Of a stretch of DNA of 64,000 nucleotides, positions 7,684 through 39,565 are shown piece after piece. Source of the stretch: a virus. Taxonomy: Duplodnaviria > Heunggongvirae > Uroviricota > Caudoviricetes. Made by a program: the position numbers and the translations under genes. The stretch lies in the IMG/VR virus record IMGVR_UViG_2660238580_000002; one strand, given 5' to 3'. Numbering within the stretch: position 1 is the first letter of the stretch; each line of letters begins with the position of its first letter. The notes beneath the pieces are model-generated. The model had not been told where the DNA came from. It worked only from the letters and a program-made list of their open reading frames with translations, and did no database searches.

Positions 7684-7690
7684 ATTCACC

Positions 7691-8413: not shown

Positions 8414-11815
<3,402 letters not shown>

Positions 11816-14218: not shown

Positions 14219-16776
14219 CGTCCACCTCCGGAGAACAGGCCACCATCACGCATCTGTGTCTGAATTTCATCACGGGCACCCTTGCGGGCCATGTCATACA
14301 CCGCCTTCAGAGCAGCCGGACCTATCTGCCCGTTCGTGCCGTCGTTGTTAATCACCACATGGTTATTCTGCTCAAACGTCCCGGACGCCTGCGACCGGCT
14401 GTCTGCCATGCTGCCCGGTGTACCGACATAACCGCCGGTGGCATAGCCGCGCATCAGCCGGTAAAGATTCCCCACGCCAATCCGGCTGGTTGCCTCCTTC
14501 GTGAAGACAAACTCACCACGGTGAACAATCCCCGCTGGCTCATATTTGCCGCCGGTTCCCGTAAATCCTCCGGTTGCAAAATGGAATTTCGCCGCAGCGG
14601 CCTGAATGGCTGTACCGCCTGACGCGGATGCGCCGCCACCAACAGCCCCGCCAATGGCGCTGCCGATACTCCCGACAATCCCCACCATTGCCTGCTTAAG
14701 CAGAATTTCTGTCATCATGGACAGCACGGAACGGGTGAAGCTGCGCCAGTTCTGCTCACTGCCGGTCAGCATCGCCGCCATATTCTGTGCAATACCATCA
14801 AAGGTCTGCGTGGCTGCACTTTTTACCTGCGACATACTGTCCGTGGCGCTCTCTTCCCACTCACTCCAGCCGGACTTCAGGCCTGCCATCCAGTTCCCGC
14901 GAAGCTGGTCTTCAGCCGCCCAGGTCTTTTTCTGCTCTGACATGACGTTATTCAGCGCCAGCGGATTATCGCCATACTGTTCCTTCAGGCGCTGTTCCGT
15001 GGCTTCCCGTTCTGCCTGCCGGTCAGTCAGCCCCCGGCTTTTCGCATCAATGGCGGCCCGTTTTGCCCGTTGCTGCTGTGCGAATTTATCCGCCTGCTGC
15101 GCCAGCGCGTTCAGGCGCTCCTGATACGTAACCTTGTCGCCAAGTGCAGCCAGCTGGCGTTTGTACTCCAGCGTCTCATCTTTATGCGCCAGCAGGGATT
15201 TCTCCTGTGCAGACAGCTGGCGACGTTGCGCCGCCTCCTCCAGTACCGCGAACTGACTCTCCGCCTTCCACAAATCCCGGCGCTGCTGGCTGATTTTCTC
15301 ATTTGCTCCGGCATGCTTCTCCAGCGTCCGGAGTTCTGCCTGAAGCGTCAGCAGGGCAGCATGAGCACTGTCTTCCTGACGATCGCCCGCAGACACCTTC
15401 ACGCCGGACTGTTTCGGCTTTTTCAGCGTCGCTTCATAATCCTTTTTCGCCGCCGCCATCAGCGTGTTGTAATCCGCCTGCAGGATTTTCCCGTCTTTCA
15501 GTGCCTTGTTCAGTTCTTCCTGACGGGCGGTATATTTCTCCAGCGGCGTCTGCAGCCGTTCGTAAGCCTTCTGCGCCTCTTCGGTATATTTCAGCCGTGA
15601 CGCTTCGGTATCGCTCTGCTGCTGCGCATTTTTGTCCTGTTGAGTCTGCTGCTCAGCCTTCTTTCGGGCGGCTTCAAGCGCAAGACGGGCCTTTTCACGA
15701 TCATCCCAGTAACGCGCCCGCGCTTCATCGTTAACAAAATAATCATCCTTGCGCAGATTCCAGATGTCGTCTGCTTTCTTAAACGCAGCCTCTGCCTTAA
15801 TCAGCATCTCCTGCGCGGTATCAGGACGACCAATATCCAGCACCGCATCCCACATGGATTTGAATGCCCGTGCTGTCCTGTCTGCCCAGGTCTCCAGCGT
15901 GCCCATGTTCTCTTTCAGGCGGCGGGTCTGGTCATCAAACCCTTTCGTTGCGGCCTCGTTCGCCGCCTGCAATGCCCCGGCTTCATCGCCGGAACGCTGC
16001 AACTGAGCAACATACGCAATCTGCTCCGCCGTCACGTTATGGAACTGGCGTGCCATCGCCGTCAGCCCCGACGTCGGGTCTGTGGTCAGCTTCCCGAAGG
16101 CTTCAGCGACCTTGTCCACCTCCACGCCGGATGCAGAGGAGAAACGCGCCACACTCTGGCTGATGGACGCAATCTGAGCCTCACCGCTTACCCCCGCCTT
16201 AACCAGTGCGCTGAGTGACTCGCTGGTCTGGTTAAACGTCAGCCCTGCCGCCTGCCCGGCTCTGGACAGGGCCAGAATACGATCTGCCGTCAGTCCCGCC
16301 TGATTGCCGGAAAGGACCAGCGTTTTGTTGAAATCGGACAGGGTTGAGTTGCCCTGATACCAGGCATACGCCAGCGCACCGGTCGCCACCGCCAGCGAGG
16401 TGGCCCCCACCATCGGCAGGGTGATCGCACCGGCAAGCCCCCTGAACATGGGGATCATCCCGCCGAAGGAGTCCTTAACCTGACCACCCTGTTGCAGCAG
16501 GATCAGCCACGGACTTTGCCCGCCTGCAAGCTGCGTGGCCACGTCGGTGAACTGTGCAGGCAGCATACGCATGGCGGCTTTATACTGCCCGACGGAAATC
16601 CCCGCTTTCTGTGCAGCCAGCGCCTGTCGGCTCAGCGACTGTTCAACGACTGCCGCTGTTTTTTTCGCATCAGTTTCCGTACCGGAAAAATGACGCCTGA
16701 CTCTGGCCATCTGCTCGTCAAATCTGGCCGCATCCAGACTTAAATCAACGACCAGATCGCCTACCGGTTCAGCCAT
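14215..16776 (-). CDS. H: tail tape measure protein H
   Basis: 853 aa; 2562 nt equals lambda H; coiled-coil-rich. Confidence 0.9.
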   Translation of the reverse strand: MAEPVGDLVVDLSLDAARFDEQMARVRRHFSGTETDAKKTAAVVEQSLSRQALAAQKAGISVGQYKAAMRMLPAQFTDVATQLAGGQSPWLILLQQGGQVKDSFGGMIPMFRGLAGAITLPMVGATSLAVATGALAYAWYQGNSTLSDFNKTLVLSGNQAGLTADRILALSRAGQAAGLTFNQTSESLSALVKAGVSGEAQIASISQSVARFSSASGVEVDKVAEAFGKLTTDPTSGLTAMARQFHNVTAEQIAYVAQLQRSGDEAGALQAANEAATKGFDDQTRRLKENMGTLETWADRTARAFKSMWDAVLDIGRPDTAQEMLIKAEAAFKKADDIWNLRKDDYFVNDEARARYWDDREKARLALEAARKKAEQQTQQDKNAQQQSDTEASRLKYTEEAQKAYERLQTPLEKYTARQEELNKALKDGKILQADYNTLMAAAKKDYEATLKKPKQSGVKVSAGDRQEDSAHAALLTLQAELRTLEKHAGANEKISQQRRDLWKAESQFAVLEEAAQRRQLSAQEKSLLAHKDETLEYKRQLAALGDKVTYQERLNALAQQADKFAQQQRAKRAAIDAKSRGLTDRQAEREATEQRLKEQYGDNPLALNNVMSEQKKTWAAEDQLRGNWMAGLKSGWSEWEESATDSMSQVKSAATQTFDGIAQNMAAMLTGSEQNWRSFTRSVLSMMTEILLKQAMVGIVGSIGSAIGGAVGGGASASGGTAIQAAAAKFHFATGGFTGTGGKYEPAGIVHRGEFVFTKEATSRIGVGNLYRLMRGYATGGYVGTPGSMADSRSQASGTFEQNNHVVINNDGTNGQIGPAALKAVYDMARKGARDEIQTQMRDGGLFSGGGR

Positions 16777-17203
16777 ACCGGACTCCTCCTGCGATCCCTT
16801 CTGATACTGTCATCAGCATTACGTCATCCTCCGTCATGTCCGCCACATCCGGGGAAGCGGGGATAACTTCATTCCCGTCCGGGCCAAAACGAACGCCTCC
16901 GGCAAGCCCTGCCGCTTTCTGCATCAGCACATCATCTTCAGGCTCTTCGTCAGCCTCGCGCCGGTTCAGCAGACTGAAATCCAGCGGATGCATATCCGGA
17001 TCGCTGAAAAACAGGCTGAGCACGGTGTACGTCAGCCCGGAAAAGTGCATATCCAGCAGAACATCATGAAAATAATGGGTACTGTAAAAGCGGTGCCAGT
17101 CGGCATACTCCGTGGATGACATCCCGGCAAGCATGGCACGCCAGTCGGGTCGCCCCATCTCGCGCGCCAGTTTCAGGGCAAAACTCAGCTCACCGTCGAA
17201 CAC
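16769..17203 (-). CDS. T: tail assembly chaperone T frame (made as G-T fusion by -1 frameshift)
   Basis: 435-nt ORF overlapping 3' end of G in the -1 frame, as in lambda. Confidence 0.85.
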   Translation of the reverse strand: MFDGELSFALKLAREMGRPDWRAMLAGMSSTEYADWHRFYSTHYFHDVLLDMHFSGLTYTVLSLFFSDPDMHPLDFSLLNRREADEEPEDDVLMQKAAGLAGGVRFGPDGNEVIPASPDVADMTEDDVMLMTVSEGIAGGVRYG

Positions 17204-17607
17204 TTTCCCGCAGAAACAGGCTCTGCAGGCCCGGCGTCCTCTGCCTGTTCAGGGGCATCATTCACCACAAACTCATACATACCAGACAGCCGGTACACCA
17301 CGTTTTCAGCATGAGAAATTGCCTCCGTGGGCCAGGTGGTAAGCACTTCCTGCTCAATCTGTTTAACGGCTTCATTCATGGACGGCATCTGCGTCTTCTG
17401 CGGATGGTTATGCCACAGGGACATCGCCACCAGAAACGCGCCGGTTCTGATGGCGTCTTCCACAGTAAACTTCCGGTTGCTGTCTGACTCCGCCTGTTCT
17501 GCCTGCCGTTTCATCAGGGCGAGATGCTCAATGCGCTGCAGGGCTGACAGTTCAGAAAGCGTGACGGTCACACCGTTATGTTCAAATGATTCGGTTTTCA
17601 GGAACAT
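17185..17607 (-). CDS. G: tail assembly chaperone G
   Basis: 140 aa MFLKTESFEHNGVTVTLSELSALQRIEHL, lambda G. Confidence 0.9.
   Translation of the reverse strand: MFLKTESFEHNGVTVTLSELSALQRIEHLALMKRQAEQAESDSNRKFTVEDAIRTGAFLVAMSLWHNHPQKTQMPSMNEAVKQIEQEVLTTWPTEAISHAENVVYRLSGMYEFVVNDAPEQAEDAGPAEPVSAGKCSTVS
17203..17209 (-). other. programmed -1 ribosomal frameshift slippery site GGGAAAG (G to G-T)
   Basis: Heptamer G GGA AAG read on minus strand 6 codons before G stop, at the G/T overlap. Confidence 0.8.
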
Positions 17608-20157: not shown

Positions 20158-20946
20158 TTACGCCAGTTGTACGGACACGAACGCATCAGGGTCAGCCAGC
20201 AGCATCAGCGGTGCTGACTGAATCATGGTGAACTCACGCGCCGGATCGCCGGTGGTCACCCAGTTTTTCGGGTAACGGGCAGAGGCGTTAATGCCTTCGC
20301 GCTGTGCGTCCGCATCCTGAATGCAGCCATAGGTGCGCAGACCGCGTGCCTGAGTGTTCCCCAGCACCATCGTGTTGTCCGGCAGGAAGTTCTTTTTGAC
20401 GCCGTTTTCCACGTACTGTCCGGAATACACGACGATGGCCACATCGCCATACATCCCCTTATAGGACACCGCTTTGCCCAGGTCTTTCACCGCTGTCTCC
20501 AGCTCGGAATTAGAGCCACGACGGGTATCCAGCTTCTCCTTGACGGCTTTGAAGGAACGGAACAGCGCCCAGCCTTTCGGATCGAACACGATGATATTCA
20601 CCACACCGCTGGCGTTCAGCGCGTAGGCTTCGATATCGTCGGTCGGGTCATACGTGGACTTGTCACGCTTGCTCCACTCCGTGCCGCCGGACTGCGTGAT
20701 GTTATTCTCCTCACTGCGGCCCATATCCACCTCAACCGGATCGAAGGCTTCACCGGTCATGGTGTATTTGCCCTTAAGCACGGCAGAAACTGCCTGCATC
20801 TCTTCGACCTGAGCAATGGCCAGCTCTTCGTCACGCATGTTCTGCATGATGATGCGACGGCGGCGGTAAGCCGGGTCCGCCAGATTCTGCGGATCTTCAT
20901 CCGGCAGGCGACGCAGGGTCATCTGCGGATTCACTTCATGCTTCGG
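20158..20946 (-). pseudogene. E: major capsid protein E, 3' fragment (codons ~82-341) cut off from its 5' part by island insertion
   Basis: Reads PKHEVNPQMTLRRLPDEDPQ...PDAFVSVQLA with no start codon; in-frame stop immediately upstream of PKH. Confidence 0.92.
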
Positions 20947-20948
20947 CT
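20939..20948. repeat. 10-bp direct repeat TGCTTCGGCT (island junction, putative att core)
   Basis: Identical 10-mer at 33376-33385; lies in E codons Lys-Pro-Lys-His. Confidence 0.8.
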
Positions 20949-21082: not shown

Positions 21083-21988
21083 ATGCGCTCACCCAACAGA
21101 ATGCATGAACGCTCAACATTTTATAAGTATATGTCGTTGAATACCGCGAAGATTGTTCTTGATTCATGCAGCCTTAGATGGAGTTCTCCGGTCCTATTTA
21201 ATGACCCTTTTGATGTTCCAAGAGAAGTTATGCCTGGTATTAACGAAATTAATATTGGCAAAGCTTTAGCCCGCAAGTTAATAGCGGAGTTGATTACCCC
21301 CAGAGAAGACATACAAAATTTAAACCCTAGAATTAGAACAATGCTAAGTGATTTCCAAAAGTCATTTCCTTTAGGCATACCCGCAGGATTAATTGAAAGA
21401 TTTCAAGAAATGGTAAACATTCCACCAGTTGGGATTGGCGCTCCTGCGGCAATACAAGAAATGAAAGATGTCTGGCGAGGAATGCTTAATAACAGAAGGA
21501 TTTTGTGTTTATCTGAGAGCCCTATAATCACTCCTATGTGGAATCACTATGCCGATAAATATAAAGGTATAGTTATCGAATTTGATTGTGTAGACTTTCT
21601 GGATAGCGCTTGGTTAATAGCCAAACCTATGAAATACACAGATAAAATGCCTCTAACTCACACTGCTGAAGGGATGGCCGAGTTGCTTTTCATGCCAGAC
21701 AATAAGTCAATTGAATATATCAATAATGAGATAATATTCATAAAAACAGAAGAATGGGCATATGAAAGAGAGTGGAGAATTTCAACCTACGCTAGGCCAA
21801 ATAGCACTGGTCAATATAGCGACTTAAAATTTCACCCTTTTGAGTTAAAATCTGTAATACTTGGTCCTCTTTTTGATGCCAGCGAGTTCGATGAAGTCGC
21901 ATCACTAGTTAAGATGTATCCAAGAGCGAAATTATTTAAAAGTTCATTTGGGAACGACAGAAAAATATCCATAGTACCACTACCTTAA
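21083..21988 (+). CDS. DUF2971-family protein
   Basis: 301 aa; N-terminal FYKYMSLNTAKIVLDSCSLRWSSPVLFNDPFD signature; GAGGA RBS upstream. Confidence 0.65.
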   Translation: MRSPNRMHERSTFYKYMSLNTAKIVLDSCSLRWSSPVLFNDPFDVPREVMPGINEINIGKALARKLIAELITPREDIQNLNPRIRTMLSDFQKSFPLGIPAGLIERFQEMVNIPPVGIGAPAAIQEMKDVWRGMLNNRRILCLSESPIITPMWNHYADKYKGIVIEFDCVDFLDSAWLIAKPMKYTDKMPLTHTAEGMAELLFMPDNKSIEYINNEIIFIKTEEWAYEREWRISTYARPNSTGQYSDLKFHPFELKSVILGPLFDASEFDEVASLVKMYPRAKLFKSSFGNDRKISIVPLP

Positions 21989-22094: not shown

Positions 22095-22646
22095 TTAACT
22101 TCGCTGATTATCCTTGATATACCTTTCAGCCATATCTGGAATGTTATCTGAGATCTGGTAAGCTCGAATAAATGCTTTACTGACCTCCATCTTAATGAAG
22201 TCCTGATACCGTTTTTCCATGCCAGGAAACTGTCGACAGATCGCAAGTGGAAGACTATCAATGATTGCTCCAACTTCCCCAGTTAATTTCGACAAGGCAT
22301 AAGTCGCAAATGCAGTGTCAATTACCTCACCTGTTTCGCTGGCATTCTTCAGTTCCTGTGCGTCGGCCTGCGCACGCGTAAGTCGATGGCGTTCGTACTC
22401 AATAGTCCCTGGCTGGAGATCTGCCTCGCTGGCCTGGCGCAGTTCTTCAACCTCCCGGCGCAGCTTTTCGTTCTCAATTTCAGCATCCCTTTCGGCATAC
22501 CATTTTATGACGGCGGCAGAGTCATAAAGCACCTCATTACCCTTGTCACCGCCTCGCAGAACGGGCATTCCCTGCTCCTGCTAGTTCTGAATGGTACGGA
22601 TACTCGCACCGAAAATGTCAGCCAGCTGCTTTTTGTTGGCTTCCAT
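22095..22646 (-). pseudogene. terminase small subunit Nu1-like gene with in-frame amber codon at codon 22
   Basis: MEANKKQLADIFGASIRTIQN-TAG-QEQGMPVL...; first ~100 aa near-identical to prophage Nu1, C-terminal ~80 aa divergent; TAG at 22581-22583 where helper has TGG. Confidence 0.8.
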
Positions 22647-22699
22647 TGTTCATTCCACGGACAAAACCAGAGAAAGGAAACGACAGAGGCCAAAAAGCC

Positions 22700-22860
22700 T
22701 GTTTTTAGCACCTGTCGTTTCCTTTCTTTTTAGGGGATGTTTTTAATAAAAACATTAAGTTACGGCGAAGAAGAACGGAAACGCCTTAAACAGGAAAATT
22801 TTCACAAATAGCGAAAACCCGCGCGCCTGACGCCCCGTAGCCTGTCAGATCGCCGGAAAG
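22700..22860 (-). other. island cos-like region (cosB-like, variant cosN 22824-22835, partial cosQ-side)
   Basis: Aligns base-by-base with prophage cos (39600-39790); 5 of 12 cosN positions differ (GGGCGTCAGGCG vs GGGCGGCGACCT). Confidence 0.7.
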
Positions 22861-22891: not shown

Positions 22892-23275
22892 TCAACCAAT
22901 CAGCTTATAGCGACCATCCCGTGCATTGCGGCGTACACGCTCAATCTTGAGGCATAGCGCCGCATCTGGCTTTTTTGGGACAGGTACGCGGCAATATTCA
23001 GAAGCGCGAGGAATATTATTTATCCAGTCGATCACTTCACTTAAATACCAGGCCTTACGCCCTTCCGTAACCTGCACACGCTCCGGGAACTCTCCACTAG
23101 CCTCAAGGTTTAGCAGTGTACGCCGACTCAGGGTTGTAATTTCCATCACCTGATTCATATCAACAAGGCGCTCGCTTAAACACATTTTGTCAGCGATAGC
23201 TTTTAATTCCTCTACAGCTGGATTCGGGTACATCATTTCGGCAATTGGCTTAAGGTCATTGTAATCATTCTGCAT
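22892..23275 (-). CDS. AlpA/excisionase-family HTH protein
   Basis: 127-aa ORF; C-terminal half ITTLSRRTLLNLEASGEFPERVQVTEGRKAWYLSEVIDWI resembles AlpA-type HTH; true start may be internal. Confidence 0.5.
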   Translation of the reverse strand: MQNDYNDLKPIAEMMYPNPAVEELKAIADKMCLSERLVDMNQVMEITTLSRRTLLNLEASGEFPERVQVTEGRKAWYLSEVIDWINNIPRASEYCRVPVPKKPDAALCLKIERVRRNARDGRYKLIG

Positions 23276-23286: not shown

Positions 23287-23628
23287 TTACACACGAGCCA
23301 GCGGCTGAACAGAAATACCTGAGCCAACAAACGCTGCAATCTTTACTGACAGTTCTTTTACAGACTCAGGCCAGTTCAGAGCATCAACATTTAAGACACC
23401 TGTCTTATAGACCTGAGCCCGTGTTTTTTTCGCGGTGTCGATTTGTACAGCGGAAACATAAACCGCTTTACCTACGCTCGAACCATCCCATACCACCAGT
23501 GCACCTGTTGCATCTTCCTGCATCAGTGGCGTAAATGCAGGAATTACCCCTTTATTAGCTGAAAATATCCCCAGCGTAGTCACCAGTGCTTCAGTGCCAG
23601 CCATGAGTTCAGTGTAATGAGTAGCCAT
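23287..23628 (-). CDS. head decoration protein D homolog (island-encoded)
   Basis: 113 aa; shares PA-TPLM...VAWDG/VVWDG...YK-G...WPE...AF-G with lambda gpD. Confidence 0.6.
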   Translation of the reverse strand: MATHYTELMAGTEALVTTLGIFSANKGVIPAFTPLMQEDATGALVVWDGSSVGKAVYVSAVQIDTAKKTRAQVYKTGVLNVDALNWPESVKELSVKIAAFVGSGISVQPLARV

Positions 23629-23637
23629 TGCTCCCCC

Positions 23638-24678
23638 TTAGCCAATGCGAACGGTAACAAAACGATTGATGCGGGCCGGTATTGGCTGTGGTGCTGAATG
23701 TGTCTGCACATATTCAATAGCCGGATCACCAGGTACAATATAGTTTTTCGGTGCAAGTTCGGCTTTAGTCAGCCCCATTCGGATTAGCTCCGGATCCTGA
23801 ATACCGCCATAGGCGACAATCCCCTGAAGAGCCGTATTGCCAAGCACCATCAAATCAGGATCAAGGAAATGTTTTTCTGTTCCGTCCTCGTCGGTATAAC
23901 GCCCGCTGTAAACAACAATCGCAACATCGCCCATATACCCTTTAAAACTCACCGAATCACCAAGGTCTTTAAGGGCCGTTTCCAGTTCGGAATTAGAACC
24001 ACGACGGGTATCCAAAGCCTCTTTTATCGCTCTGAATGAACGGTATTTCTTCCATACATTACCACCCATAATGATGATATTAGTGACGCCCTCACTAAAT
24101 TCTGCGTAGCTCTCAATATCATCATTTGGATCAAAAGTTTCTTTATCCTTACTTGACCACTCAGTACCGCCAGACTGAGTGATGATATTTTGTGGTTTTA
24201 TATTCCAGTCCAGCTCATAACGTTCAATACCATCGCCCTCAATGATATTTTTCCCCGTTGTGATTGCCTGAACAGCAAGCCATTCAATACGTGCACGAAT
24301 AGCTTTAGCTTGATTTACAATCGCCTGTTTAACTTTAATATTACGCGCCCCAAAAGCATTGTATTGCTCAGGTGATACACCAGCAGGGCGCACAGCTAAC
24401 TTATTTGGATCAATGCTGCTTTTCGGCTTCATATAGCCTGGACGAATTGTTTTTGATTCGTACCCTTCGTCACGTGAAACTTTACTACCCACCATAGGAG
24501 AACAAAACGCTGCAATTGGGATATTTGGATCGTCGATTGTATCAAGAATAATATCGCGCGATTCAAACATTACCGAGCGAGTAAAAAACAAACTGGTAAA
24601 CAACGCATTTAGTTGTTTTTGTACATCTACAGCATTAACCACCTGTACAAGCTGGGTAGGCGAATATAAATCAACCAT
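23638..24678 (-). CDS. major capsid protein E homolog (island-encoded, diverged)
   Basis: 347 aa from MVDLYSPTQL (AAAGAGGA RBS); C-terminus ITQSGGTEWS...DTRRGSNSELETA...GDVAIVVYSG aligns with lambda gpE. Confidence 0.8.
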   Translation of the reverse strand: MVDLYSPTQLVQVVNAVDVQKQLNALFTSLFFTRSVMFESRDIILDTIDDPNIPIAAFCSPMVGSKVSRDEGYESKTIRPGYMKPKSSIDPNKLAVRPAGVSPEQYNAFGARNIKVKQAIVNQAKAIRARIEWLAVQAITTGKNIIEGDGIERYELDWNIKPQNIITQSGGTEWSSKDKETFDPNDDIESYAEFSEGVTNIIIMGGNVWKKYRSFRAIKEALDTRRGSNSELETALKDLGDSVSFKGYMGDVAIVVYSGRYTDEDGTEKHFLDPDLMVLGNTALQGIVAYGGIQDPELIRMGLTKAELAPKNYIVPGDPAIEYVQTHSAPQPIPARINRFVTVRIG

Positions 24679-24963
24679 ACACATCCTCTTTGCATTCATT
24701 AAAAATAATTGTGGATATATGCTATCACCAATATTTGTCATGCGAATACATGCAACCGAGTGCAATGTTGTATAAAGTTTTGGGATGACAACTTCAGCGC
24801 GGATAATTAGTGTTAATATATTCACTCCCTTTGGTCGGGATTTATGTAGCATGCCGGAAAATTTATTTTTTCCGGCCTTTTTTATTGGCAATATTTAAAA
24901 CGGAATATCATCTCCCCATTGCTCATTATCTCCCACTGGTGGATGGCTTCCTTGCTGATCTGC

Positions 24964-25344
24964 CTATTGTTTTGCTCTGTTCAGTGCGTCAGTAGCCTGA
25001 CCCTGTTGACCTTTTTTGCCGCCCGGTCGCACCGTTCGCGCACTGATTACGCTGTCTGCGATAACCTGCCAGCCCTGCCGCGTTTCACCGTTCTGTCCAG
25101 TCCACTGGCTCACCTGCATGTTACCCGCCACGCTCAGGAGTTCGCCTTTGTGATGCTTTGCCAGCGCATCGGCTTGTCTGCCAAACGCCAGCACAGATAA
25201 CCACATCGTCGCCGTTCCGTCATCTGCCTGGCTGCATGGCAAAGATACCGCCATCCGTGCCAGTGTCATGGGTGTTCCCTTGCTGGTATGTTTTACCTGT
25301 GGGTCGTCCACCAGCCGCCCGTAAGCTGCTATTTGCGCCGTCAT
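24964..25344 (-). CDS. single-stranded DNA-binding protein (OB-fold, SSB-like)
   Basis: 126 aa with SSB-like pattern GRLVDDPQV...WLSVLAFGRQAD...KGELLSVAGNMQVSQW. Confidence 0.6.
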   Translation of the reverse strand: MTAQIAAYGRLVDDPQVKHTSKGTPMTLARMAVSLPCSQADDGTATMWLSVLAFGRQADALAKHHKGELLSVAGNMQVSQWTGQNGETRQGWQVIADSVISARTVRPGGKKGQQGQATDALNRAKQ

Positions 25345-25887: not shown

Positions 25888-27639
25888 TTATAAAAACGCA
25901 TCGCAATCATCAGTAGTCGTTGCGTTGGTCTGAGTGACTCCCTTAACTTTTCGCGTAATATATTCATATCCGTAAACTTTCGCCGCTGACCTCATAGCCT
26001 TTCCGAACTCATTCACGCTCAAACATTTCCCCTTTCCTGTATATGCCATGAAGGCCATATAGACACGGTAAAGGCTGTTTCTGGTCGTGTACTTCACGGT
26101 GTCACCACCACCGCCCATCATTAGCCCACGAGCTTCCTCCAGAAACTCCAGCGCCGCGCAAAGCTCAACAACCGGATCCGTTTGCTGCTTTATTGCCAGA
26201 GCTTCATCACCGTCACGCTGTTCCAGTAATAAAGCCCGTGCCTTTTCAGGGTCAGCAAAATTAGCCAGCAAGCGGCGGATAATTACGGGGATTTCTGCCG
26301 CTATCTTTTCCGGTAATTCCTTGTCTTTTTCGTCCTCCCTTACAATGTTGTCGAACCGGAAAATCACCCGACGGCGTGACACACCTCCGGCCCGTTCGGT
26401 AAAGATCATCGGGTCGTTATTGGTTGCCAGTACCACCGCCCTTATTATCGTCGTGAATCGCTTCTCATATTTCGGGTTAATTTCAACGGGATCGCCTCCC
26501 GTGATTTTCTTGATGCCCGTGCCTTCCCCCGTATATTTCGGCTGATCGGCAAGGACGATAAGACGACTCCCGACAACCTGCGCGCGCCCTCCTGCATCAT
26601 CGAGTGATGTCATCTCTGCGCTTACGGTGTTCTGTTTGCCAGCAAGCAGGGTGGCAATATGAGTAAATGTGCTCTTTCCGCTTCCCCCGTCTCCGGTGGC
26701 CTCAATGAACATCTGCCAGTCGTAGCGGTTCGCCATAATCATGTATAACGCGGCACATATACGCATCATCTTGCGCGGGTCTTTTCCTGCAGCATGTTCA
26801 AGCCATTTATGGAAATTTGGCGCATTATCGCGGATGTTTTCCCCTGCTACTGGTGGCGTGTACTCAATACCATTGTGCGTGGTGCTCCAGTGCTCCGGCG
26901 AGTGCGGAGAAAATTCCCCCGTTTTCAGATTAAGCACACCATTAGTGAACGGTAGCAAATCACCGGACGGCTCCCCCATGGGGGCGGCAATAACTTTTAA
27001 CGCTTCCACGGCGTTATTGATTACGCGCTTGCTGAACGTGGCCCTGTGCTCTGAATAGATCGCCACCATTTCGCGGCTCAGCTCCATTGTGCTGACCGGA
27101 CACCATACCCCGCCGCGCCATACGTGGACGATTTCACTTTCTGCATGAACACAAACACCATCAAAGCGATCGGCAAGTAGTTGTGCCCGCTCACTGTCTG
27201 CCATCTGTGAAAGTTGCGCCTTTTGCTTCGTCGGAAGATTAAGCACCAGGCTTTCCCCACGCTCGCATTCCTCTTTGAGTCGCGGCAACTGGTCGGATAA
27301 ATCCACTGGGCTGGTGTCAGTAATCCCCGCGTATTCGTGTACGGTCTTCACTCCAGCCACAGCCAGTAACGTAACAATCTGCGTCATGCTGTGCTCTGTG
27401 ATATGTCCTGCGCGGTAAACACGCACACACTGACGATCTTCATCAATGATCCGGTAATCGGTGATGTTTTTCAGTTGCTCATCAGCCAACACGACAGGCG
27501 GCACATCGTCGGCGGCAATATGTTTACCCGCCCATTCCTGCCACTCTTTCGCATGGCTCCACGCATCACTACCTGCAAAGATGATTACCTCTGTCAGTCT
27601 GTCGCGTGGCTGTTTTTTTAAGTTCGGTGCCAGTTTCAT
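25888..27639 (-). CDS. P4-family primase/helicase (Pri-Rep-like replication protein)
   Basis: 583 aa; Walker A GDGGSGKST in C-terminal NTPase domain; adjacent to iterons. Confidence 0.75.
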   Translation of the reverse strand: MKLAPNLKKQPRDRLTEVIIFAGSDAWSHAKEWQEWAGKHIAADDVPPVVLADEQLKNITDYRIIDEDRQCVRVYRAGHITEHSMTQIVTLLAVAGVKTVHEYAGITDTSPVDLSDQLPRLKEECERGESLVLNLPTKQKAQLSQMADSERAQLLADRFDGVCVHAESEIVHVWRGGVWCPVSTMELSREMVAIYSEHRATFSKRVINNAVEALKVIAAPMGEPSGDLLPFTNGVLNLKTGEFSPHSPEHWSTTHNGIEYTPPVAGENIRDNAPNFHKWLEHAAGKDPRKMMRICAALYMIMANRYDWQMFIEATGDGGSGKSTFTHIATLLAGKQNTVSAEMTSLDDAGGRAQVVGSRLIVLADQPKYTGEGTGIKKITGGDPVEINPKYEKRFTTIIRAVVLATNNDPMIFTERAGGVSRRRVIFRFDNIVREDEKDKELPEKIAAEIPVIIRRLLANFADPEKARALLLEQRDGDEALAIKQQTDPVVELCAALEFLEEARGLMMGGGGDTVKYTTRNSLYRVYMAFMAYTGKGKCLSVNEFGKAMRSAAKVYGYEYITRKVKGVTQTNATTTDDCDAFL

Positions 27640-28600: not shown

Positions 28601-29491
28601 TCAGGCTGCCAGATCATCGTTTCCGATGGAAGCATAATAAGCTTTTTCTGCTTCTGCCGGAGGAGTATGGCCCAGCCTTTCCAGCAATCGTCGATTGTTA
28701 TACCAGTCCACCCACGTGAGTGTGGCCAGTTCCACTTCTGCACGGTTTTTCCAGCTCTTACGGTGTATTACCTCCGCTTTGTAAAGACCATTGATGCTCT
28801 CCGCCATCGCGTTGTCATACGAGTCGCCTGTACTTCCTGTTGATGCCAGTAATCCGGCTTCCTTAAGCCGCTGTGTGTAGGCCAGCGATACATACTGAGA
28901 ACCTTTATCACTGTGATGGACCGTGCCGGACGGTCGACGGGCCCATAACGCCTGCTCCAGTGCATCCAGCACGAATGTCGTTTCCATGGACGATGAGACC
29001 CGCCACCCCACGATGTATCCGGCAAACACATCAATGATGAACGCCACATAGACGAAGCCCCGCCATGTGCTGACGTAAGTAAAATCAGCCACCCACAGCT
29101 GGTCAGGTCGTTCTGCCACGAACTGACGGTTTACGCGGTCGCCTGCGGCAACGGCTTTCCGGCTGATGGTCGTACGGACCTTTTTACCCCGGAGAACACC
29201 GGCAAGTCCCATAACCGCCATGAGACGTGCCACAGTGCATCTGGCCACTCTGATACCTTCCCGTAACAACTGACGCCAGACTTTACGCACACCGTATACC
29301 TTGTGATTTTCATCGTATACGCGCTGTATCTCTTTCTTCAGCCAGTCATCGCGCTGCGCACGGGCACTGCGTTTATCCGGATGATGTCGCTGTTGCTGAC
29401 AGTGGTAATACGTTGACGGGGCAATATGCAGTTCGCTGCATAGCGGTCCGACCCCGTACTGCTCACGCAGCTTATCCAGCAGTGGCATCAT
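28601..29491 (-). CDS. IS629 transposase OrfB (DDE integrase core)
   Basis: 296 aa, identical to copy at 61767-62657. Confidence 0.9.
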
Positions 29492-29814
29492 TTTTTCCAG
29501 AGGCGGTCGAACTCCGCCTTCGCAAAATAAGCGGAAGCCTGGCGAAGGATATCGTTACTGCGGCGCAGTTCACGATTTTCACGTTCCAGCTCTTTCAGAC
29601 GCTGACGTTCAGCGGTGGTGAGCCCTCCATCACCGCCCCCGGTATCCCGCTCATGCTGGCGAACCCAGACACGCAGAGTCTCCGGCGTACAGCCAATCTT
29701 TGGAGCAATGGAACAAATTGTCGCCCATTGTGAGTCATATTCGCTCTGACTTTCCAGAACCATACGGACTGCCCGTTGACGGACTTCGGGGGAAAAACGA
29801 GTATTTTTAGTCAT
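29488..29814 (-). CDS. IS629 transposase OrfA (HTH)
   Basis: 108 aa [30 protein letters not shown]. Confidence 0.9.
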
Positions 29815-30906: not shown

Positions 30907-31737
30907 TTACCCCCTGAATGGAATTGATGAGGATTTAATTTCCACTGAACTAAATCCTTTTGAATCCAAGAACATTTTTATACCAGCCTCAATGAAATCA
31001 TAATCGTTTGTCGGGCCAATAGTAATACTTTTAATTGGTAACTTCCTATGATCTTTATTACCAATGATGATATAAGGGATGACACCATTATTATTTATTC
31101 TGAATTGCACATCTGGTATTAGTATGCGCGGAGTAAATACCAATCTAAATTCATTTTCTTCGATAAAACTAGGATGTTTAAAAAATGGGATGTATTTAGA
31201 TATAAATTGATACGTAGAGGCCATTGTTACAAAATGATCATTCTTTTCTTTAATATTAATACCATTACAAGAAAAAAACGCCCCCAACTCCTTACTCATC
31301 TTAGTAACATCGTTATTATTTGAATATATAACATCATGTGCAACACAATTTAAATAAATATTTTGAGAAAAGCTCACAAGTTCATCCGCATCAAACTCAA
31401 TGCAAACACCCTGTTTATTTCCGTAACCTCTCCACTGACTTAACTTATCGTTTTCCTTACAAAAAGAGATGCTATAAACATGTTTATCAATCCCTTTTTC
31501 TTTTTGTAACCTCCCTTTCTCATACATGTCAAGAGACTTGAGCAAAATAGTTTTCTTATCTTTTGGAATGATATTGTCATCAACTATTTTAATTGTATTT
31601 CGAAAGCATTCACATCCATGGTTAGACTCCTCTTTATCATTTAAGAAATATATGTTTGTAGCCCATAAAGAATTAGAGTCTAATATACCTTTCAAACCAA
31701 AAAGATCTGTATAATGAAATATAGCCACAATGCCCAC
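30907..31737 (-). CDS. DUF2971-like protein
   Basis: 276 aa; N-terminal IFHYTDLFGLKGILDSNSLWATNIYFLNDKEE resembles DUF2971 signature. Confidence 0.5.
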   Translation of the reverse strand: MGIVAIFHYTDLFGLKGILDSNSLWATNIYFLNDKEESNHGCECFRNTIKIVDDNIIPKDKKTILLKSLDMYEKGRLQKEKGIDKHVYSISFCKENDKLSQWRGYGNKQGVCIEFDADELVSFSQNIYLNCVAHDVIYSNNNDVTKMSKELGAFFSCNGINIKEKNDHFVTMASTYQFISKYIPFFKHPSFIEENEFRLVFTPRILIPDVQFRINNNGVIPYIIIGNKDHRKLPIKSITIGPTNDYDFIEAGIKMFLDSKGFSSVEIKSSSIPFRG

Positions 31738-31744: not shown

Positions 31745-31975
31745 TTAAGTTGTTTCCCACTCACCTCGAATCCATGCCTGCACTTCTGAAAGACGATATG
31801 CAACAGCAGTGGAACCAATCTTGATCCGCTTAGGAAATTTTCCTTCCTTCTCCAGCTTCCAGCGTGTGCTGTTCGCAAGAGTGGTTAGCTCCCGACATTC
31901 TTTCTCACGGATCATTCGGTCAATGTTAGGAATGTACTCCAGACCCTTTTTATCAACAATTGCCATTTTTTTCAT
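31745..31975 (-). CDS. alpA: AlpA-family transcriptional regulator
   Basis: 76 aa; TTLANSTRWKLEKEGKFPKRIKIGSTAVAYRLSEVQAWI AlpA-type HTH; immediately downstream of int. Confidence 0.75.
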   Translation of the reverse strand: MKKMAIVDKKGLEYIPNIDRMIREKECRELTTLANSTRWKLEKEGKFPKRIKIGSTAVAYRLSEVQAWIRGEWETT

Positions 31976-31976
31976 G

Positions 31977-33212
31977 TTAACCAGCCTTTTGTTTGAGGAT
32001 TGTCACTTTTGAATCAGCACCTGCGATGCTATTGAGATATGTAGTCCAGAGTTCCAGAGCATCCAGTTTTTTAGCCATAAACTTACTCCGGTTGTAAACA
32101 CCTGCCACGCCAGGTAGCGCATGGCCTAACAGTTGTTCTACTACATAAAATTCAACACCGAGATCACTTAGATGAGTAGATAGCGTTCTTCTAAGGTCGT
32201 GTAGTGACCATTGTTTTTCATGGCCCAAACGTTTACCGATTTTCCCCCCAATCTTGCTTACGCTTTCTCTAATTCGCAGACTTCCCAGCACATAACCAGT
32301 ATGTTTTGTCTCTTCGTGAACATCCGTTACCCACTGTCGTAGAATTTCAGGTACTGGTCTGACGATTTCAACACCGGTTTTTGAGTGTTCTTTTGGTACA
32401 GTCCAAACCCAACTTTCTAGATCCCATTCGCTCCATTCTGATAATCGGGCTTCACTCATTCGACATCCAAATACTGTACAAAGCACAAACATTTTTCGCG
32501 TGTATTCAGACATTAGTTTTAAATCAGGCTCGACAAAAATTGCCTTCCAGAGCTGGCCCAGTTCGGCTTCATCCAGAACCCGATCCCGCTTACCTGCAAT
32601 CTGCCCCACATCACTCATGCGCAAATCCTTTAAAGCATCACACGTCGCGTACTGGCGTACCCGACAAAAACGAAGAGCTAATTTAGTGTCAGAAAAAACA
32701 TACGCCGCCATAACTGGTGCATTACGTTTAATTCGGTCAAAACAGTCCAGCCATTCATATAGGTGAGTGTCATTTACGGGCAAATGACCGATATAGGGAA
32801 AGATATGCTTTCGAAATCTGCCAAGCGTTACAGCATGAGTTTTACGACGCACCTTACAGTAATTTTCATACCAGTAATTTAGTGCATCCTCCACTGTGAC
32901 CGGCTTTAAGCGTTCTTCAGCCTGAATCTTAATCTGGATACGCGGATCACGTTTGTCAGCCAACCAACCACGGCACTCGTCGCGCTTTTCTCTTGCCTGT
33001 TTGAGTGACATATCAGGATATTTACCCAACGTTAGCCAGACCGGAGCAGCCCGGCCACCTGCTAACCTGTAGAAGAAAACAAAGCTCACAGCCCCCTTAG
33101 TACTCACACGAATAGAAAGCCCCTTTCCATCAGCAATGGTGATCTGCTTTTCTCTGGGTTTCCCCAGATATCCTTTAAGCGCTTTGTCGCTCAGTTTGTT
33201 CTCGCCAGCCAT
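31977..33212 (-). CDS. int: P4-type tyrosine integrase
   Basis: Start MAGENKL; DUF4102-like arm domain; catalytic residues R (CRMSEARL), HDLRRT, Y (VAGVYNRS); adjacent to junction repeat. Confidence 0.9.
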   Translation of the reverse strand: MAGENKLSDKALKGYLGKPREKQITIADGKGLSIRVSTKGAVSFVFFYRLAGGRAAPVWLTLGKYPDMSLKQAREKRDECRGWLADKRDPRIQIKIQAEERLKPVTVEDALNYWYENYCKVRRKTHAVTLGRFRKHIFPYIGHLPVNDTHLYEWLDCFDRIKRNAPVMAAYVFSDTKLALRFCRVRQYATCDALKDLRMSDVGQIAGKRDRVLDEAELGQLWKAIFVEPDLKLMSEYTRKMFVLCTVFGCRMSEARLSEWSEWDLESWVWTVPKEHSKTGVEIVRPVPEILRQWVTDVHEETKHTGYVLGSLRIRESVSKIGGKIGKRLGHEKQWSLHDLRRTLSTHLSDLGVEFYVVEQLLGHALPGVAGVYNRSKFMAKKLDALELWTTYLNSIAGADSKVTILKQKAG

Positions 33213-33344: not shown

Positions 33345-33620
33345 CTACACGAAAGCCTCAGAAAGCCATGCTAAGTGCTTCGGCTTGACATATCCCGGCG
33401 TAAATTCAGAGGTGGAGCCGCCACGGGAACGGATAACCTCACCGGAAACAATCGGCGAAACGTACAGCGCCATGTTTACCAGTCCCGGAATTTGTGAGAG
33501 ATAGACTTTCTCCGTGGTGAAGGGATAGCTCTCACGGAAAAAGAGACACAGAAACAGCGGATCAAACTTAAATTTCTGCTCATTTGCCGCCAGCAGTTGG
33601 GCGGTTGTGTACATCGACAT
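33345..33620 (-). pseudogene. E: major capsid protein E, 5' fragment (codons 1-~83) fused to 9 island-derived codons
   Basis: MSMYTTAQLLAANEQKFKFDPLFL...EFTPGYVKPKH then LAWLSEAFV-stop from island sequence. Confidence 0.92.
33376..33385. repeat. 10-bp direct repeat TGCTTCGGCT (island junction, putative att core)
   Basis: Identical to 20939-20948; overlaps E codons Lys-Pro-Lys-His of the 5' fragment. Confidence 0.8.
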
Positions 33621-33675: not shown

Positions 33676-34008
33676 TTAAACGATGCTGATTGCCGTTCCG
33701 GCAAACGCGGTCCGTTTTTTCGTCTCGTCGCTGGCAGCCTCCGGCCAGAGCACATCCTCATAACGGAACGTGCCGGACTTGTAGAACGTCAGCGTGGTGC
33801 TGGTCTGGTCAGCAGCAACCGCAAGAATGCCAACGGCAGCACCGTCGGTGGTGCCATCCCACGCAACCAGCTTACGGCTGGAGGTGTCCAGCATCAGCGG
33901 GGTCATTGCAGGCGCTTTCGCACTCAATCCGCCGGGCGCGGTTGCGGTATAAGCCGGGTCACTGTTGCCCAGCGGCTGGTAATGGGTAAAGGTTTCTTTG
34001 CTCGTCAT
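33676..34008 (-). CDS. D: head decoration protein D
   Basis: [12 protein letters not shown]...; 333 nt equals lambda D. Confidence 0.92.
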
Positions 34009-34017
34009 AAACATCCC

Positions 34018-34623
34018 TTACACTGGTGTGTTCAGCAAATCGTTAACGGCATCAGATGCCGGGTTACCTGCAGCCAGCGGTGCCGGTGCCCCCTGCATCA
34101 GACGATCCAGCGCAGTGTCACTGCGCGCCTGTGCACTCTGTGGTGCTGCGGCCAGAATGCGGCGGGCCGTTTCCACGGTCATACCGGGGGTTTCTGCCAG
34201 CACGCGTGCCTGTTCTTCGCGTCCGTGAGCCTCCTCACAGTTGAGGATCCCCATAATGCGGCTGTTTTCTGCCGCAACCGCTGCGGTGATCTGCGCGTTC
34301 ACGTCCGGCTGCGCCGCGCTGGCGTTTTCGCCCTCCGTCGCTGGCACCACGTCAGTAACGTCAGCCTGCGAAGCAGTGGCTGAAACAGTTGTTGATTGAG
34401 TCTCTTTGGTCATTCGCCCTCCTGAGAGACGGGATTTACGTGCATCCAGTGCATCACGCATGACGGTGATCGCATCGGTGCTGTTAACAAGTTCATCAGC
34501 CAGTCCGGCATCAATGGCCTCCTGACCGCTGTACACTGCAGCCTCGGTATCCAGCACAGCCTGCACGGACAGGCCGGTATATGCCGACACCTTCTGCGCA
34601 AACATCTGGCGGGTTGCGTCCAT
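34018..34623 (-). CDS. Nu3: scaffolding protein Nu3 (in-frame internal start within C)
   Basis: Internal Met MDATRQMFAQ gives 201 aa, matching lambda Nu3 arrangement. Confidence 0.7.
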   Translation of the reverse strand: MDATRQMFAQKVSAYTGLSVQAVLDTEAAVYSGQEAIDAGLADELVNSTDAITVMRDALDARKSRLSGGRMTKETQSTTVSATASQADVTDVVPATEGENASAAQPDVNAQITAAVAAENSRIMGILNCEEAHGREEQARVLAETPGMTVETARRILAAAPQSAQARSDTALDRLMQGAPAPLAAGNPASDAVNDLLNTPV

Positions 34624-35317
34624 CCGGGACTGCAGTGTCTCCCGGACGTCATCCGGAAGATGGCTGTAGGGGTTGCCATCCACCTTATGGCTGCCGCTGT
34701 AAATCAGAGTGATTTCCACACCCTGTTTCTCCAGCGCAGCACCGTAATTACTGTGAGCCATCATGACGCCGATGGAGCCTGTCCGGGCGGTCTGCGTGAC
34801 CAGACGCCGGGAGGCGGCACTGGCAAGCAGCTGACCTGCACTGCAGTTCATGTCGTTGGCCAGCGCCCATACCGGTTTTATGTCACGCACACGGGCGATG
34901 ATGTCAGCGCAGTCAAATGCCCCCGCCACCATCCCTCCGGGCGTGTCCATATCGAGCAGAATGCCGTCCACCATCGGATCGCTGGCAGCCTGTTGCAGAC
35001 GGGCGATAATGCCGTTGTAACCGGTCATCCCCGAATACGGCTGCAGCGCCCGCGTCCGGCTGACCAGCGTGCCGGACACCGGCAGCACGGCGATGCCGTT
35101 CATGACCTGATAACTGCGGGCCTGTCGTGGTCCGTCATCATCAACGGATAACGCCAGCGCCGCGGGTGCCTCTCCGGCAGTCAGGCTGTCGCCGGACACC
35201 GCATCCGTCAGGCGGCTGATCCCAAGCTGGCCTGCAAGCGCACAAAAGAAAACCCGCGCATAGGCGGGTTCAAGCATCAGCGGCTCATTAAAAGCCATGC
35301 TGGCAATATGCGGGAGA

Positions 35318-35337
<20 letters not shown>
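34018..35337 (-). CDS. C: capsid assembly protease C
   Basis: 1320 nt equals lambda C; GTG start inferred (VTAELRNLPHIASMAFNEPL); 20-nt overlap with B as in lambda. Confidence 0.85.
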
Positions 35338-37119
<1,782 letters not shown>

Positions 37120-37123
<4 letters not shown>

Positions 37124-39045: not shown

Positions 39046-39565
39046 TCAGCAACCCCGGTATCAGTTCATCCAGCGCGGCTGCTTTGTTCATGGCTTTGAT
39101 GATATCCCGTTTCAGGAAATCAACATGTCGGTTTTCCAGTTCCGGAAAACGCCGCTGCACCGACAGGGGGATCCCGTCGAGAATACTGGCAATTTCACCT
39201 GCGATCCGCGACAGCACGAAAGTACAGAATGCGGTTTCCACCACTTCAGCGGAGTCTCTGGCATTTTTCAGCTCCTGTGCGTCGGCCTGCGCACGCGTAA
39301 GTCGATGGCGTTCGTACTCAATAGTCCCTGGCTGGAGATCTGTCTCGCTGGCCTGCCGCAGTTCTTCAACTTCCCGGCGCAGCTTTTCGTTCTCAATTTC
39401 AGCATCCCTTTCGGCATACCATCTTATAACGGCGGCAGAGTCATAAAGCACCTCATTACCCTTGCCACCGCCTCGCAGAACGGGCATTCCCTGTTCCTGC
39501 CAGTTCTGAATGGTACGGATACTCGCACCGAAAATGTCAGCCAGCTGCTTTTTGTTGACTTCCAT
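39020..39565 (-). CDS. Nu1: terminase small subunit Nu1
   Basis: 181 aa MEVNKKQLADIFGASIRTIQNWQEQGMPVLRGGGKGNEV; 546 nt equals lambda Nu1. Confidence 0.93.
   Translation of the reverse strand: MEVNKKQLADIFGASIRTIQNWQEQGMPVLRGGGKGNEVLYDSAAVIRWYAERDAEIENEKLRREVEELRQASETDLQPGTIEYERHRLTRAQADAQELKNARDSAEVVETAFCTFVLSRIAGEIASILDGIPLSVQRRFPELENRHVDFLKRDIIKAMNKAAALDELIPGLLSEYIEQSG

Follow-up and report, generated by a model that had tools for sequence, protein, structure and literature searches.

Why does a satellite island that carries no portal, protease or large terminase gene encode its own homologues of a major capsid protein and a decoration protein? The question is raised by a locus in a 64,000-nt virus record (IMGVR_UViG_2660238580_000002), the whole stretch of DNA that was analysed and that we refer to as the window. 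Here an island of 12.4 kb lies inside gene E of a lambda-type prophage. It is delimited by two copies of the att core AGCCGAAGCA, both on the minus strand: the copy on the integrase side (33376-33385) adjoins the end of the helper E 5' fragment (33386-33620) and the far copy (20939-20948) adjoins the start of the 3' fragment (20158-20938). Joining both fragments at the 10-bp core restored an intact reading frame of 341 aa with its junction at P80-K81 (codon 80), which bears out the proposal, made in an earlier sequence-only reading, that the island interrupts the helper E. The island belongs to the E:Phage_cap_E:80 type of helper-embedded PICIs, a kind already known (Tommasini et al. 2023, PMC10111431).

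The minus strand carries both the core genes of the island and the late genes of the helper. The zones of the island follow each other in the order int-alpA; DUF2971, SWIM, Icd-like and small ORFs; DUF4222, primase and SSB; and a late zone made up of the E-like gene, the D-like gene, an HTH gene, cos and terS. The tyrosine integrase (411 aa) and adjacent AlpA (31745-33212; Pfam Arm-DNA-bind_3, Phage_integrase and Phage_AlpA) sit at the position expected for the E:Phage_cap_E:80 group. An IS3-family insertion (28601-29814, minus strand; Pfam HTH_Tnp_1 and rve) is missing in two other copies of the island (L002 and L003). The PICI primase/replication protein gene (25888-27639; Pfam D5_N and DUF5906) is followed by an SSB gene (24895-25344; Pfam SSB) with a premature stop, the ORF of which ends at 24964; RefSeq flags an internal stop in copy L001, and the gene is intact in L002.

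The D-like gene is followed immediately by a second AlpA-like HTH protein gene (22892-23275, minus strand; Phage_AlpA, 7.6e-9; phrog_2790, 1e-49), and a similar gene occupies this position in L009, L012-L014 and L016. The cos region (22647-22860, minus strand) consists of a variant cosN core, GGGCGTCAGGCG, at about 22806-22840 and a lambda-like cosB. It aligns at about 95% with the cos/Nu1 region of the prophage except for the 12-nt cohesive-end core, where GGGCGTCAGGCG stands in place of GGGCGGCGACCT, and lambda-type phages match the block at 94-95%. The following Nu1-like small terminase gene (22095-22646, minus strand; Phage_Nu1, 3.8e-64) is a pseudogene, interrupted at codon 22 by an amber stop (22581-22583). 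The gene is chimeric, its N-terminal 104 aa being 95% identical to the prophage Nu1 and its C-terminal half 38%. Copy L003 (NZ_CP027461) retains terS intact and has a stop in its helper protease gene; copy L002 (NZ_CP039403), in which both primase and SSB are intact, has a terS interrupted by a stop. The prophage retains an intact decoration gene D of its own (33676-34014, minus strand; Pfam HDPD, 4.6e-21). Of 5426 complete E. coli genomes, 82 contain the 3.7-kb block that runs from terS across the capsid pair to SSB, and all three copies inspected lay within a prophage E gene.

The E-like gene (23638-24678, minus strand) is intact and preceded by the ribosome-binding site AAGAGGA, 7 nt before its ATG at 24678. 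It encodes a PICI-lineage major capsid protein homologue of 346 aa plus the stop codon, one residue fewer than the 347 aa given before. Comparison with the reconstructed E of the resident prophage showed 42% identity over the full length (BLASTP, E = 4e-87), and the protein matches Phage_cap_E (Pfam, 3e-42). It is 55% identical to c1499 of EcCICFT073, a capsid protein crystallised in 2008 (PDB 3BQW). An AlphaFold model (pTM 0.79) aligned with 3BQW at a TM score of 0.90 and with lambda gpE at 0.80-0.86. Sequence and predicted fold thus agree with the description of the protein as a diverged gpE homologue, and the structure prediction proposed as a check returned an HK97-fold match. The stretches ITQSGGTEWS, DTRRGSNSELETA and GDVAIVVYSG, cited as examples of the likeness to gpE, are all present; an alignment of ten sequences revealed them family-wide in E proteins of phages and most PICIs, so that they are not specific to the island. 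A three-way comparison in which the island protein looked closer to the helper E than to c1499 over residues of about 166-255 suggested a mosaic or gene conversion. The ten-sequence alignment ruled out an exchanged segment, since ITQ.G..WS, LDTRRGSNSELETALKDLG and GDVAIVVYSG are general to phage and PICI E proteins and the c1499 lineage alone has drifted there.

The D-like gene (23287-23628, minus strand) is likewise intact and encodes a PICI-lineage head decoration (cement) protein homologue of 113 aa. Its product shares 37% identity with the prophage D (E = 3e-17) and 54% with c1500 of EcCICFT073, and it matches HDPD (Pfam, 6.7e-15) and the SHP structure 1TD0 (6e-16). The predicted model (pTM 0.74) aligned with phage 21 SHP at TM scores of 0.82-0.89 and with gpD at 0.77-0.91. 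The relationship of this adjacent protein to gpD was therefore recognised correctly, and its predicted structure is of the gpD/SHP type. D-like proteins of the PICI clade have their own N-terminus (Y-x-E-L-x-A-G-T-E) and a C-terminal SVQPL tail.

The order of the two genes is E-like then D-like, the reverse of lambda, as had been noted before; the phage head modules fetched for comparison (L017 and L018) also run D then E. A full TerL-W-portal-protease/scaffold-D-E-FI module is present in the surrounding prophage and in these two phage relatives, not in the island. Between the two att cores (20939-20948 and 33376-33385), Pfam and PHROGs scans of the island ORFs identified no gene for a portal, a protease or a large terminase, in agreement with the sequence-only reading. 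The RefSeq annotation of L001, which carries a 100% identical 3.7-kb capsid-to-SSB block in an island of the same kind, also lists none of the three. The gene set of cf-PICIs (portal, protease, connectors, TerS, TerL and HNH) is absent among the island ORFs apart from the dead terS. A promoter and terminator scan around the pair detected nothing above shuffled controls.

Sequence comparisons indicate that the pair is a separate, old PICI lineage and not a diverged copy of helper genes, a point that the sequence-only reading had not recognised. Members of the PICI E-like lineage share 51-99% identity among themselves and about 42% with any phage E. In the ten-sequence alignment the island protein showed 54-85% identity to PICI E-like proteins and 38-46% to helper E proteins, while the three helper E proteins compared were 59-81% identical to each other. 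Recent capture of the pair from the resident helper was considered and rejected: all three helper E proteins are at about the same distance from the E-like protein (38-46% identity), and the E-like gene shows saturated synonymous sites when compared with distant PICI relatives. Genomic context follows the same division. Where context was fetched, relatives with at least 51% identity were all located in a PICI, in the order E then D and with neither portal nor protease, and relatives with about 42% identity belonged to complete phage head modules in the order D then E.

The E-then-D pair is kept across the islands examined, whether these are integrated in a prophage E, in a portal gene or at chromosomal sites. 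It is present in PICIs that leave E intact, such as EcCICFT073 (roxA/phoQ) and a Serratia island beside fis, and likewise in an Edwardsiella island in a portal gene (L015) and an E. coli island at a chromosomal site. The two genes always occur together. Clade-specific differences between PICIs and phages lie in the E-loop of the E-like protein and in the N-terminus of the D-like protein. In the lambda capsid structure, the E-loop of E and the N-terminus of D contact each other.

The pair is under strong purifying selection. For the E-like gene dN/dS was 0.09 (dN 0.099 and dS 1.06 against L012), and for the D-like gene it was 0.09-0.15 in unsaturated pairs. In each structural region the PICI clade is as strongly conserved as the phage clade, the E-loop included (0.60 versus 0.56). 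Nearly all catalogued close relatives are of full length, and intact full-length copies occur in Escherichia, Salmonella, Klebsiella, Citrobacter, Cedecea, Serratia, Edwardsiella and other genera. The island copy in the window is itself decaying, with damage in terS, SSB and one further region, but its E-like and D-like genes are both intact.

The best reading of these data is a late-zone capsid module, a matched pair of an HK97-fold shell protein and a trimeric cement. We tentatively propose, at somewhat less than even odds, that the pair is a working capsid and cement that assembles on the portal and scaffold of the helper. Since the island has the orientation of the late operon and lies in line with it, the two genes would be transcribed by read-through together with the helper late genes when a lambda-like helper is induced. 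The E-like protein, for which the island supplies neither scaffold nor portal nor protease, would then polymerise on helper parts, namely the portal (B) and the protease/scaffold (C/Nu3), and the D-like protein would cement the expanded lattice. The outcome would be full-size heads with about four island units each; four units of 12.4 kb, including the 1.2-kb IS, amount to about 45-50 kb, which is within the lambda packaging range. The pair would thereby supplement or partly replace the E/D shell of the helper and leave head size unchanged. With a good helper under laboratory conditions it would be redundant, and as long as the island splits the helper E, the E-like gene would be the sole intact shell gene of the composite. 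Deletion of c1499 or c1500 from EcCICFT073 changed neither island transfer nor lambda interference (Fillol-Salom et al., ISME J 2018, PMC6092414), which leaves a structural role unproven and redundant at best. An extended form of the proposal, which we regard as improbable, is that the pair builds a satellite-specific shell on the helper portal and scaffold, one that helper gpD cannot cement and into which helper E is not mixed. With the helper E split until late excision, the first procapsids would consist of satellite shell protein only, and together with the variant cosN this could provide private heads and a head start in packaging. If true, the satellite would take over the capsid by means of timing and replaced subunits, not by a change of size.

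Tommasini et al. (PMC10111431) put forward a role as 'backup intact copy', according to which the pair exists to supply shell protein because the island interrupts E, and the sequence-only reading had likewise suggested that the pair may substitute for the interrupted gene. [quoted passage not shown] However, the same pair is found where E is intact (L011, L006-8 and L009 at chromosomal sites, and L015 in a portal gene), so that backup is not the main reason for the pair; moreover, L015 carries no spare portal gene for the one it occupies. The lineage is old and not a recent capture from the helper, excision restores E exactly, and the composite of helper and island would, judged from the lambda size limit, be too long to be packaged unexcised. 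A dedicated backup is therefore unlikely. What stands of the suggestion is that the composite has no intact shell gene besides the E-like one, and supply for the split gene is a side benefit at most. A further reading, in which the pair is a decaying remnant of late genes once captured from a helper and now serves no function, is strongly disfavoured. The lack of a phenotype of the EcCICFT073 homologues (PMC6092414) and several pseudogenes in the island copy would fit a relic, but a dN/dS of about 0.09 at dS above 1, intact full-length copies across many genera and the conserved order and pairing of the genes argue against it.

Redirection of head size, also raised in the sequence-only reading, is unsupported and in our view quite improbable. 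It would have the E-like protein impose a smaller T number, either by itself or in mixture with helper E; the heads would then have room for one or two island units and shut out the helper genome, as SaPIbov5 Ccm brings about. In its favour, the satellite does encode an HK97-fold homologue of the helper's shell protein, and the strong selection on the gene shows some function. An 11-kb island, however, is about one quarter of the lambda genome and fits as multimers into full heads, and a cement is present. Cement of the gpD type is needed mainly by nearly full heads of lambda size. PmCI172, a Gram-negative PICI with a capsid homologue, makes small heads (PMC6092414), but these were never tied by test to the homologue, and the nearest studied relative, EcCICFT073 (55% and 54% identity for the two proteins), packages DNA of phage size only, by which size redirection was ruled out for that island (PMC6092414). 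Interference or defence, finally, would have the pair poison or compete with lambdoid capsid assembly, the E-like protein by co-assembling into defective shells or the D-like protein by competing with gpD, and would either lower helper yield or guard the cell from non-helper phages. Helper interference is common among PICIs, defence-type cargo (Abi_C, TIR and DUF2971) adjoins the pair in related islands, and the missing transfer phenotype of c1499 and c1500 fits other phages as the target. On the other hand, lambda plaques were not restored by deletion of either gene (PMC6092414), the effect of EcCICFT073 on lambda has been ascribed to Rpp (c1503) in the Rpp paper, and full-length conservation equal to that of phage capsid proteins, together with a co-inherited cement, exceeds the needs of a poison subunit. 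We consider this explanation distinctly unlikely.

The observation that prompted the question is correct, but both the type of island and its capsid/cement pair have been published, and the locus is no new kind of system. Added here are the separate PICI lineage, the conserved E-then-D pairing across integration sites and the strong purifying selection. Thousands of Gram-negative PICIs keep a matched capsid-plus-cement pair under strong selection with no phenotype found. Islands embedded in E are a natural place to seek such a phenotype because the helper shell gene is off until the island leaves. A search for later literature on what PICI capsid homologues do turned up no work other than the papers of 2018, 2019 and 2023.

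Among known systems, Eco567.11capE (PMC10111431) has the same site at codon 80 of a lambda-type E, the same 10-bp att identity block, the co-orientation with helper late genes and the layout of int-alpA, variable zone, primase/SSB and late zone. It also has its own E-family capsid gene, noted by Tommasini et al. 2023, and a cos region common to island and helper; the word 'decoration' is absent from the main text of that paper. Virion recovery from the 11capE/50icd pair failed (PMC10111431). By its published description, 11capE has no terS and 258 bp at 90% in common with its helper, whereas the island studied here has about 530 bp at about 95% and a Nu1-like gene (amber here, intact in L003), along with the IS3 insertion and the truncated SSB. 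EcCICFT073, whose genes c1499 and c1500 were described as well as deleted by Fillol-Salom et al. (PMC6092414), belongs to the same lineage, with its pair, E then D, placed between the replication genes and cos, and has no portal, protease or TerL. It differs in its chromosomal site at roxA/phoQ, as opposed to a site inside a prophage, and in having a canonical cosN and Rpp in place of a variant cosN and a Nu1-like gene. Its c1499 lineage has also diverged in the DTRRGSNSELE motif, which is otherwise family-wide.

Lambda gpE and gpD and the phage 21 SHP belong to the same Pfam families as the island proteins, with similar lengths, the HK97 fold for E and the gpD/SHP fold for D. Like gpE, the E-like protein has no delta domain, so that a separate scaffold would be needed. 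The island pair differs from these phage proteins in its identity of 42% and 37%, its reversed order, its position outside a portal/protease/scaffold operon, and its clade-specific E-loop, D N-terminus and D C-terminal tail. SaPIbov5 Ccm is likewise a satellite-borne homologue of the HK97-fold shell protein of a helper, but of another protein family and for another type of helper, and it has, to our knowledge, no cement partner. Ccm alters head size and shape, which the nearest tested relative of the island pair, in EcCICFT073, does not. The cf-PICIs such as EcCIEDL933 resemble the island in having their own shell protein, but carry a full head and packaging set (portal, protease, connectors, HNH, TerS and TerL), where the island has shell, cement and a dead terS only. 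Psu of P4 is a satellite's own capsid-stabilising decoration protein and is dispensable in the laboratory. It is unrelated in sequence and decorates shells of helper protein, whereas the D-like protein of the island comes with a matching shell protein.

Two adjacent genes on the minus strand of the island encode homologues of the lambda head proteins gpE and gpD. The E-like gene (24678-23638) has a good ribosome-binding site and encodes 346 aa, the D-like gene (23628-23287) encodes 113 aa. Our analysis confirmed the positions of both genes assigned by the sequence-only reading, as well as their order, E-like then D-like, the reverse of that in lambda. Alignment with prophage E showed 42% identity end to end (E = 4e-87) for the E-like protein, which contains the gpE motifs quoted in that reading and is indeed colinear with gpE yet diverged. 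The D-like protein proved to be a gpD homologue, with 37% identity to prophage D (E = 3e-17). Pfam assigned the pair to Phage_cap_E (3e-42) and HDPD (6.7e-15), respectively, and PHROGs assignments concurred. Sequence matches to solved structures and AlphaFold models bore out an HK97-fold capsid protein and a gpD-type decoration protein. The E-like sequence matched 3BQW (1.5e-121) and lambda gpE 7VI9 (2.6e-77), and its model gave TM scores of 0.90 to 3BQW and 0.80-0.86 to lambda gpE; the D-like sequence matched phage 21 SHP (6e-16) and gpD (1e-11), with model TM scores of 0.82-0.89 and 0.77-0.91.

The helper is a lambda-like prophage on the minus strand. Its late genes begin with Nu1 (39020-39565) and A (37120-39045); the portal gene lies at 35318-36919, the S49 protease/scaffold gene at about 34018-35337 and D at 33676-34014, and the tail genes beyond extend as far as J (8414-11812). 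Its major capsid gene E is in two pieces, the first 81 codons at 33620-33376 and the remainder at 20948-20158, separated by a 12.4-kb insert of lower G+C. The 10-bp sequence AGCCGAAGCA (minus strand) is present at both island junctions (33376-33385 and 20939-20948), and an uninterrupted 341-aa E results when the E pieces are joined there. The remaining island ORFs encode an integrase, AlpA, two DUF2971 proteins, a SWIM protein, an IS3 element, DUF4222, a D5_N primase, SSB, a second AlpA-like HTH protein, a Nu1-like protein and small unknown ORFs. As previously stated, no portal, protease or large terminase was found among the island ORFs by annotation and Pfam/PHROGs assignment.

A database search with the E-like protein revealed identities of 99% and 85% (both E. 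coli), 80% (Cedecea), 74% (Scandinavium, Serratia), 60% (Edwardsiella) and 51-58% (Salmonella, E. coli, Lelliottia), then falling to 46% or less. All fetched contexts of the upper group were phage satellite islands (PICIs) with E-like then D-like and without portal or protease. They lie at the E. coli roxA/phoQ site (L006-8, L011), adjoining fis in Serratia (L009), at another E. coli chromosomal site (L012), in the E gene of a prophage (L013, L014 and L016, the last in a contractile-tailed Cedecea prophage) and in an Edwardsiella prophage portal gene (L015). Both fetched contexts of the lower group (2/2) were complete head modules of phages, in which D precedes E as in lambda. PICI E-likes showed 38-46% identity to three different E proteins of helpers, whose identity to one another is 59-81%. 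The pair thus represents an old PICI lineage and not a recent copy of the resident helper genes. Its presence is independent of which gene the island interrupts.

Of these islands, L012 (2940-12777) lies beside ynfA/rspA with no prophage there, probably through off-target integration; L015 spans 1786-11394 within the portal gene, and the prophage hosting L016 (3363-13254) combines a lambda-type head with its contractile tail. Two database proteins, P0005 (463 aa, 85% identity to the island E-like) and P0079 (470 aa, 42%), carry Phage_cap_E and HDPD in E-then-D order in single ORFs; they may be genuine fusions, or else artefacts of read-through or frameshifting. An exchange of the E-like middle with helper E was suggested by a three-way comparison; it was dropped when a wider alignment identified the stretch as conserved family core and the c1499 lineage as the outlier.

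Selection data contradict the view that the pair is a non-functional relic. In unsaturated comparisons, dN/dS was 0.09-0.10 for E-like and 0.09-0.15 for D-like; E-like against L012 gave dN 0.099 and dS 1.06, and two c1499-type genes compared with each other gave dN 0.022 and dS 0.243. Close relatives of E-like in the database are nearly all full length, and both capsid genes are intact in the window island and in L001 despite damaged neighbours. Mean identity in the PICI clade equals that in the phage clade for every structural region of the model (E-loop 0.60 vs 0.56). The two genes are always adjacent and their divergence is roughly parallel. PICI D-likes share the N-terminus Y-x-E-L-x-A-G-T-E-x-L-V and a C-terminal SVQPL tail absent from lambda gpD, and PICI E-likes have their own E-loop sequence, AAFCSPMVGS.V.RD.GY. 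In lambda capsids, the E-loop and N-arm of gpE are the partners of the gpD N-terminus. The clade-specific changes in both partners thus suggest that D-like may be the cement for the E-like lattice.

On the most likely reading, if one somewhat short of probable, the pair is a working shell-plus-cement module. E-like and D-like would assemble on the helper portal and helper protease/scaffold, because the island has none and E-like is without a delta domain, and would form full-size heads holding about four island units (11.2 kb without and 12.4 kb with the IS). In embedded islands the pair is collinear with the helper late operon and would be read together with the late genes. Redirection to smaller heads, as put forward in the sequence-only reading, is weakened by data on EcCICFT073, the E. 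coli CFT073 PICI carrying c1499 (capsid) and c1500 (decoration), although its pair is of another subtype than the capE-type pair. All DNA packaged for EcCICFT073 was of phage size. Deletion of c1499 or c1500 did not relieve lambda interference and left transfer unchanged, and the authors found no phenotype for c1499 (PMC6092414); a review likewise gives normal-size capsids for EcCICFT073. Interference with other phages is not supported for lambda, and a later paper ascribed the lambda interference of EcCICFT073 to Rpp, which redirects the helper small terminase. Substitution for the interrupted E corresponds to the 'backup copy' idea of Tommasini et al., who called the redundancy not essential (PMC10111431). 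Excision of 11capE, the published prototype, was undetected until 2 h post induction, when the composite had already replicated (PMC10111431). Because 11capE excises late, the island E-like gene is the sole intact shell gene during part of the late phase. Such cover is plausible as a side benefit, but is not the reason the lineage exists, because the pair also occurs in islands that leave E intact. E-embedded islands are a good system for seeking the function of the pair.

The island cos (22806-22840, minus strand) has the 12-nt cohesive-end core GGGCGTCAGGCG, and the prophage cos (39725-39759) the canonical lambda core GGGCGGCGACCT; flanks and cosB are about 95% identical. Judged by these cores, island cohesive ends would not anneal to helper ends. 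The GGGCGTCAGGCG core is also present in L012 and in L001-L003, island copies inside prophage E genes of complete E. coli genomes; L013 has GGGCGGAAGGCG, and the chromosomal-site PICIs EcCICFT073, L006-8 and Serratia L009/10 keep the canonical core. The island Nu1-like small terminase gene (22095-22646, minus strand) is a chimera: cosB and codons 1-104 share 95% identity with the resident prophage Nu1, the C-terminal 78 residues only 38%. The gene is inactivated in this copy, codon 22 (22581-22583) having changed from TGG to the amber codon TAG, but L003 has an intact version. In E-embedded L013 and chromosomal L012 the Nu1 homologue is a different one, of PICI type.

The window copy is decaying and may no longer be mobile. 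SSB (24895-25344) is cut short by a premature stop, and the variable zone contains an IS3-family insertion (28601-29814); in L001, which is nearly identical, an IS1 also splits the primase (16623-17319). DUF2971 genes lie in the slot at the far end of the island, at 21083-21988 (plus strand), and near alpA, at 30907-31737 (minus strand). The same slot of related islands holds Abi_C (L012, 13180-13941), an AF_1680-family gene (L014, 12230-13546) or a TIR-domain gene (L016, 12106-13254), and with its varying cargo looks like a defence-gene hotspot. The second AlpA-like HTH protein (127 aa, 22892-23275, minus strand), encoded directly after D-like, may regulate late genes or excision; L009, L012-L014 and L016 have such a gene in the same position, EcCICFT073 does not.

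The sequence-only interpretation thus finds partial support, and it is not new. Earlier publications cover the element and the gene pair as well as both functional hypotheses, and a homologue has a published crystal structure. The EcCICFT073 island was found in the CFT073 genome, and the window pair shares 55% and 54% identity with c1499 and c1500, respectively, higher than with any phage protein; c1499 has exactly the sequence of PDB entry 3BQW, a 2008 release. 11capE (E. coli NRG857c) is a helper-embedded PICI that interrupts a lambda-type E gene at codon 80, has a 10-bp att identity block and 'bears its own capsid gene', again of the E family; Tommasini, Mageeney and Williams (2023, PMC10111431) mapped 201 such islands at the E codon-80 site and a further 290 at other sites in late genes. 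A 3.7-kb block (terS, HTH gene, D-like, E-like, SSB) was present at 80% or more coverage in 82 of 5426 complete E. coli genomes, and all three inspected copies sit inside a prophage E gene. The window island belongs to this published type: it shares with the 11capE group the insertion site, the length of the core, the orientation and the layout of its genes. Unlike the prototype 11capE, which is said to lack terS (PMC10111431), it has a Nu1-like gene.
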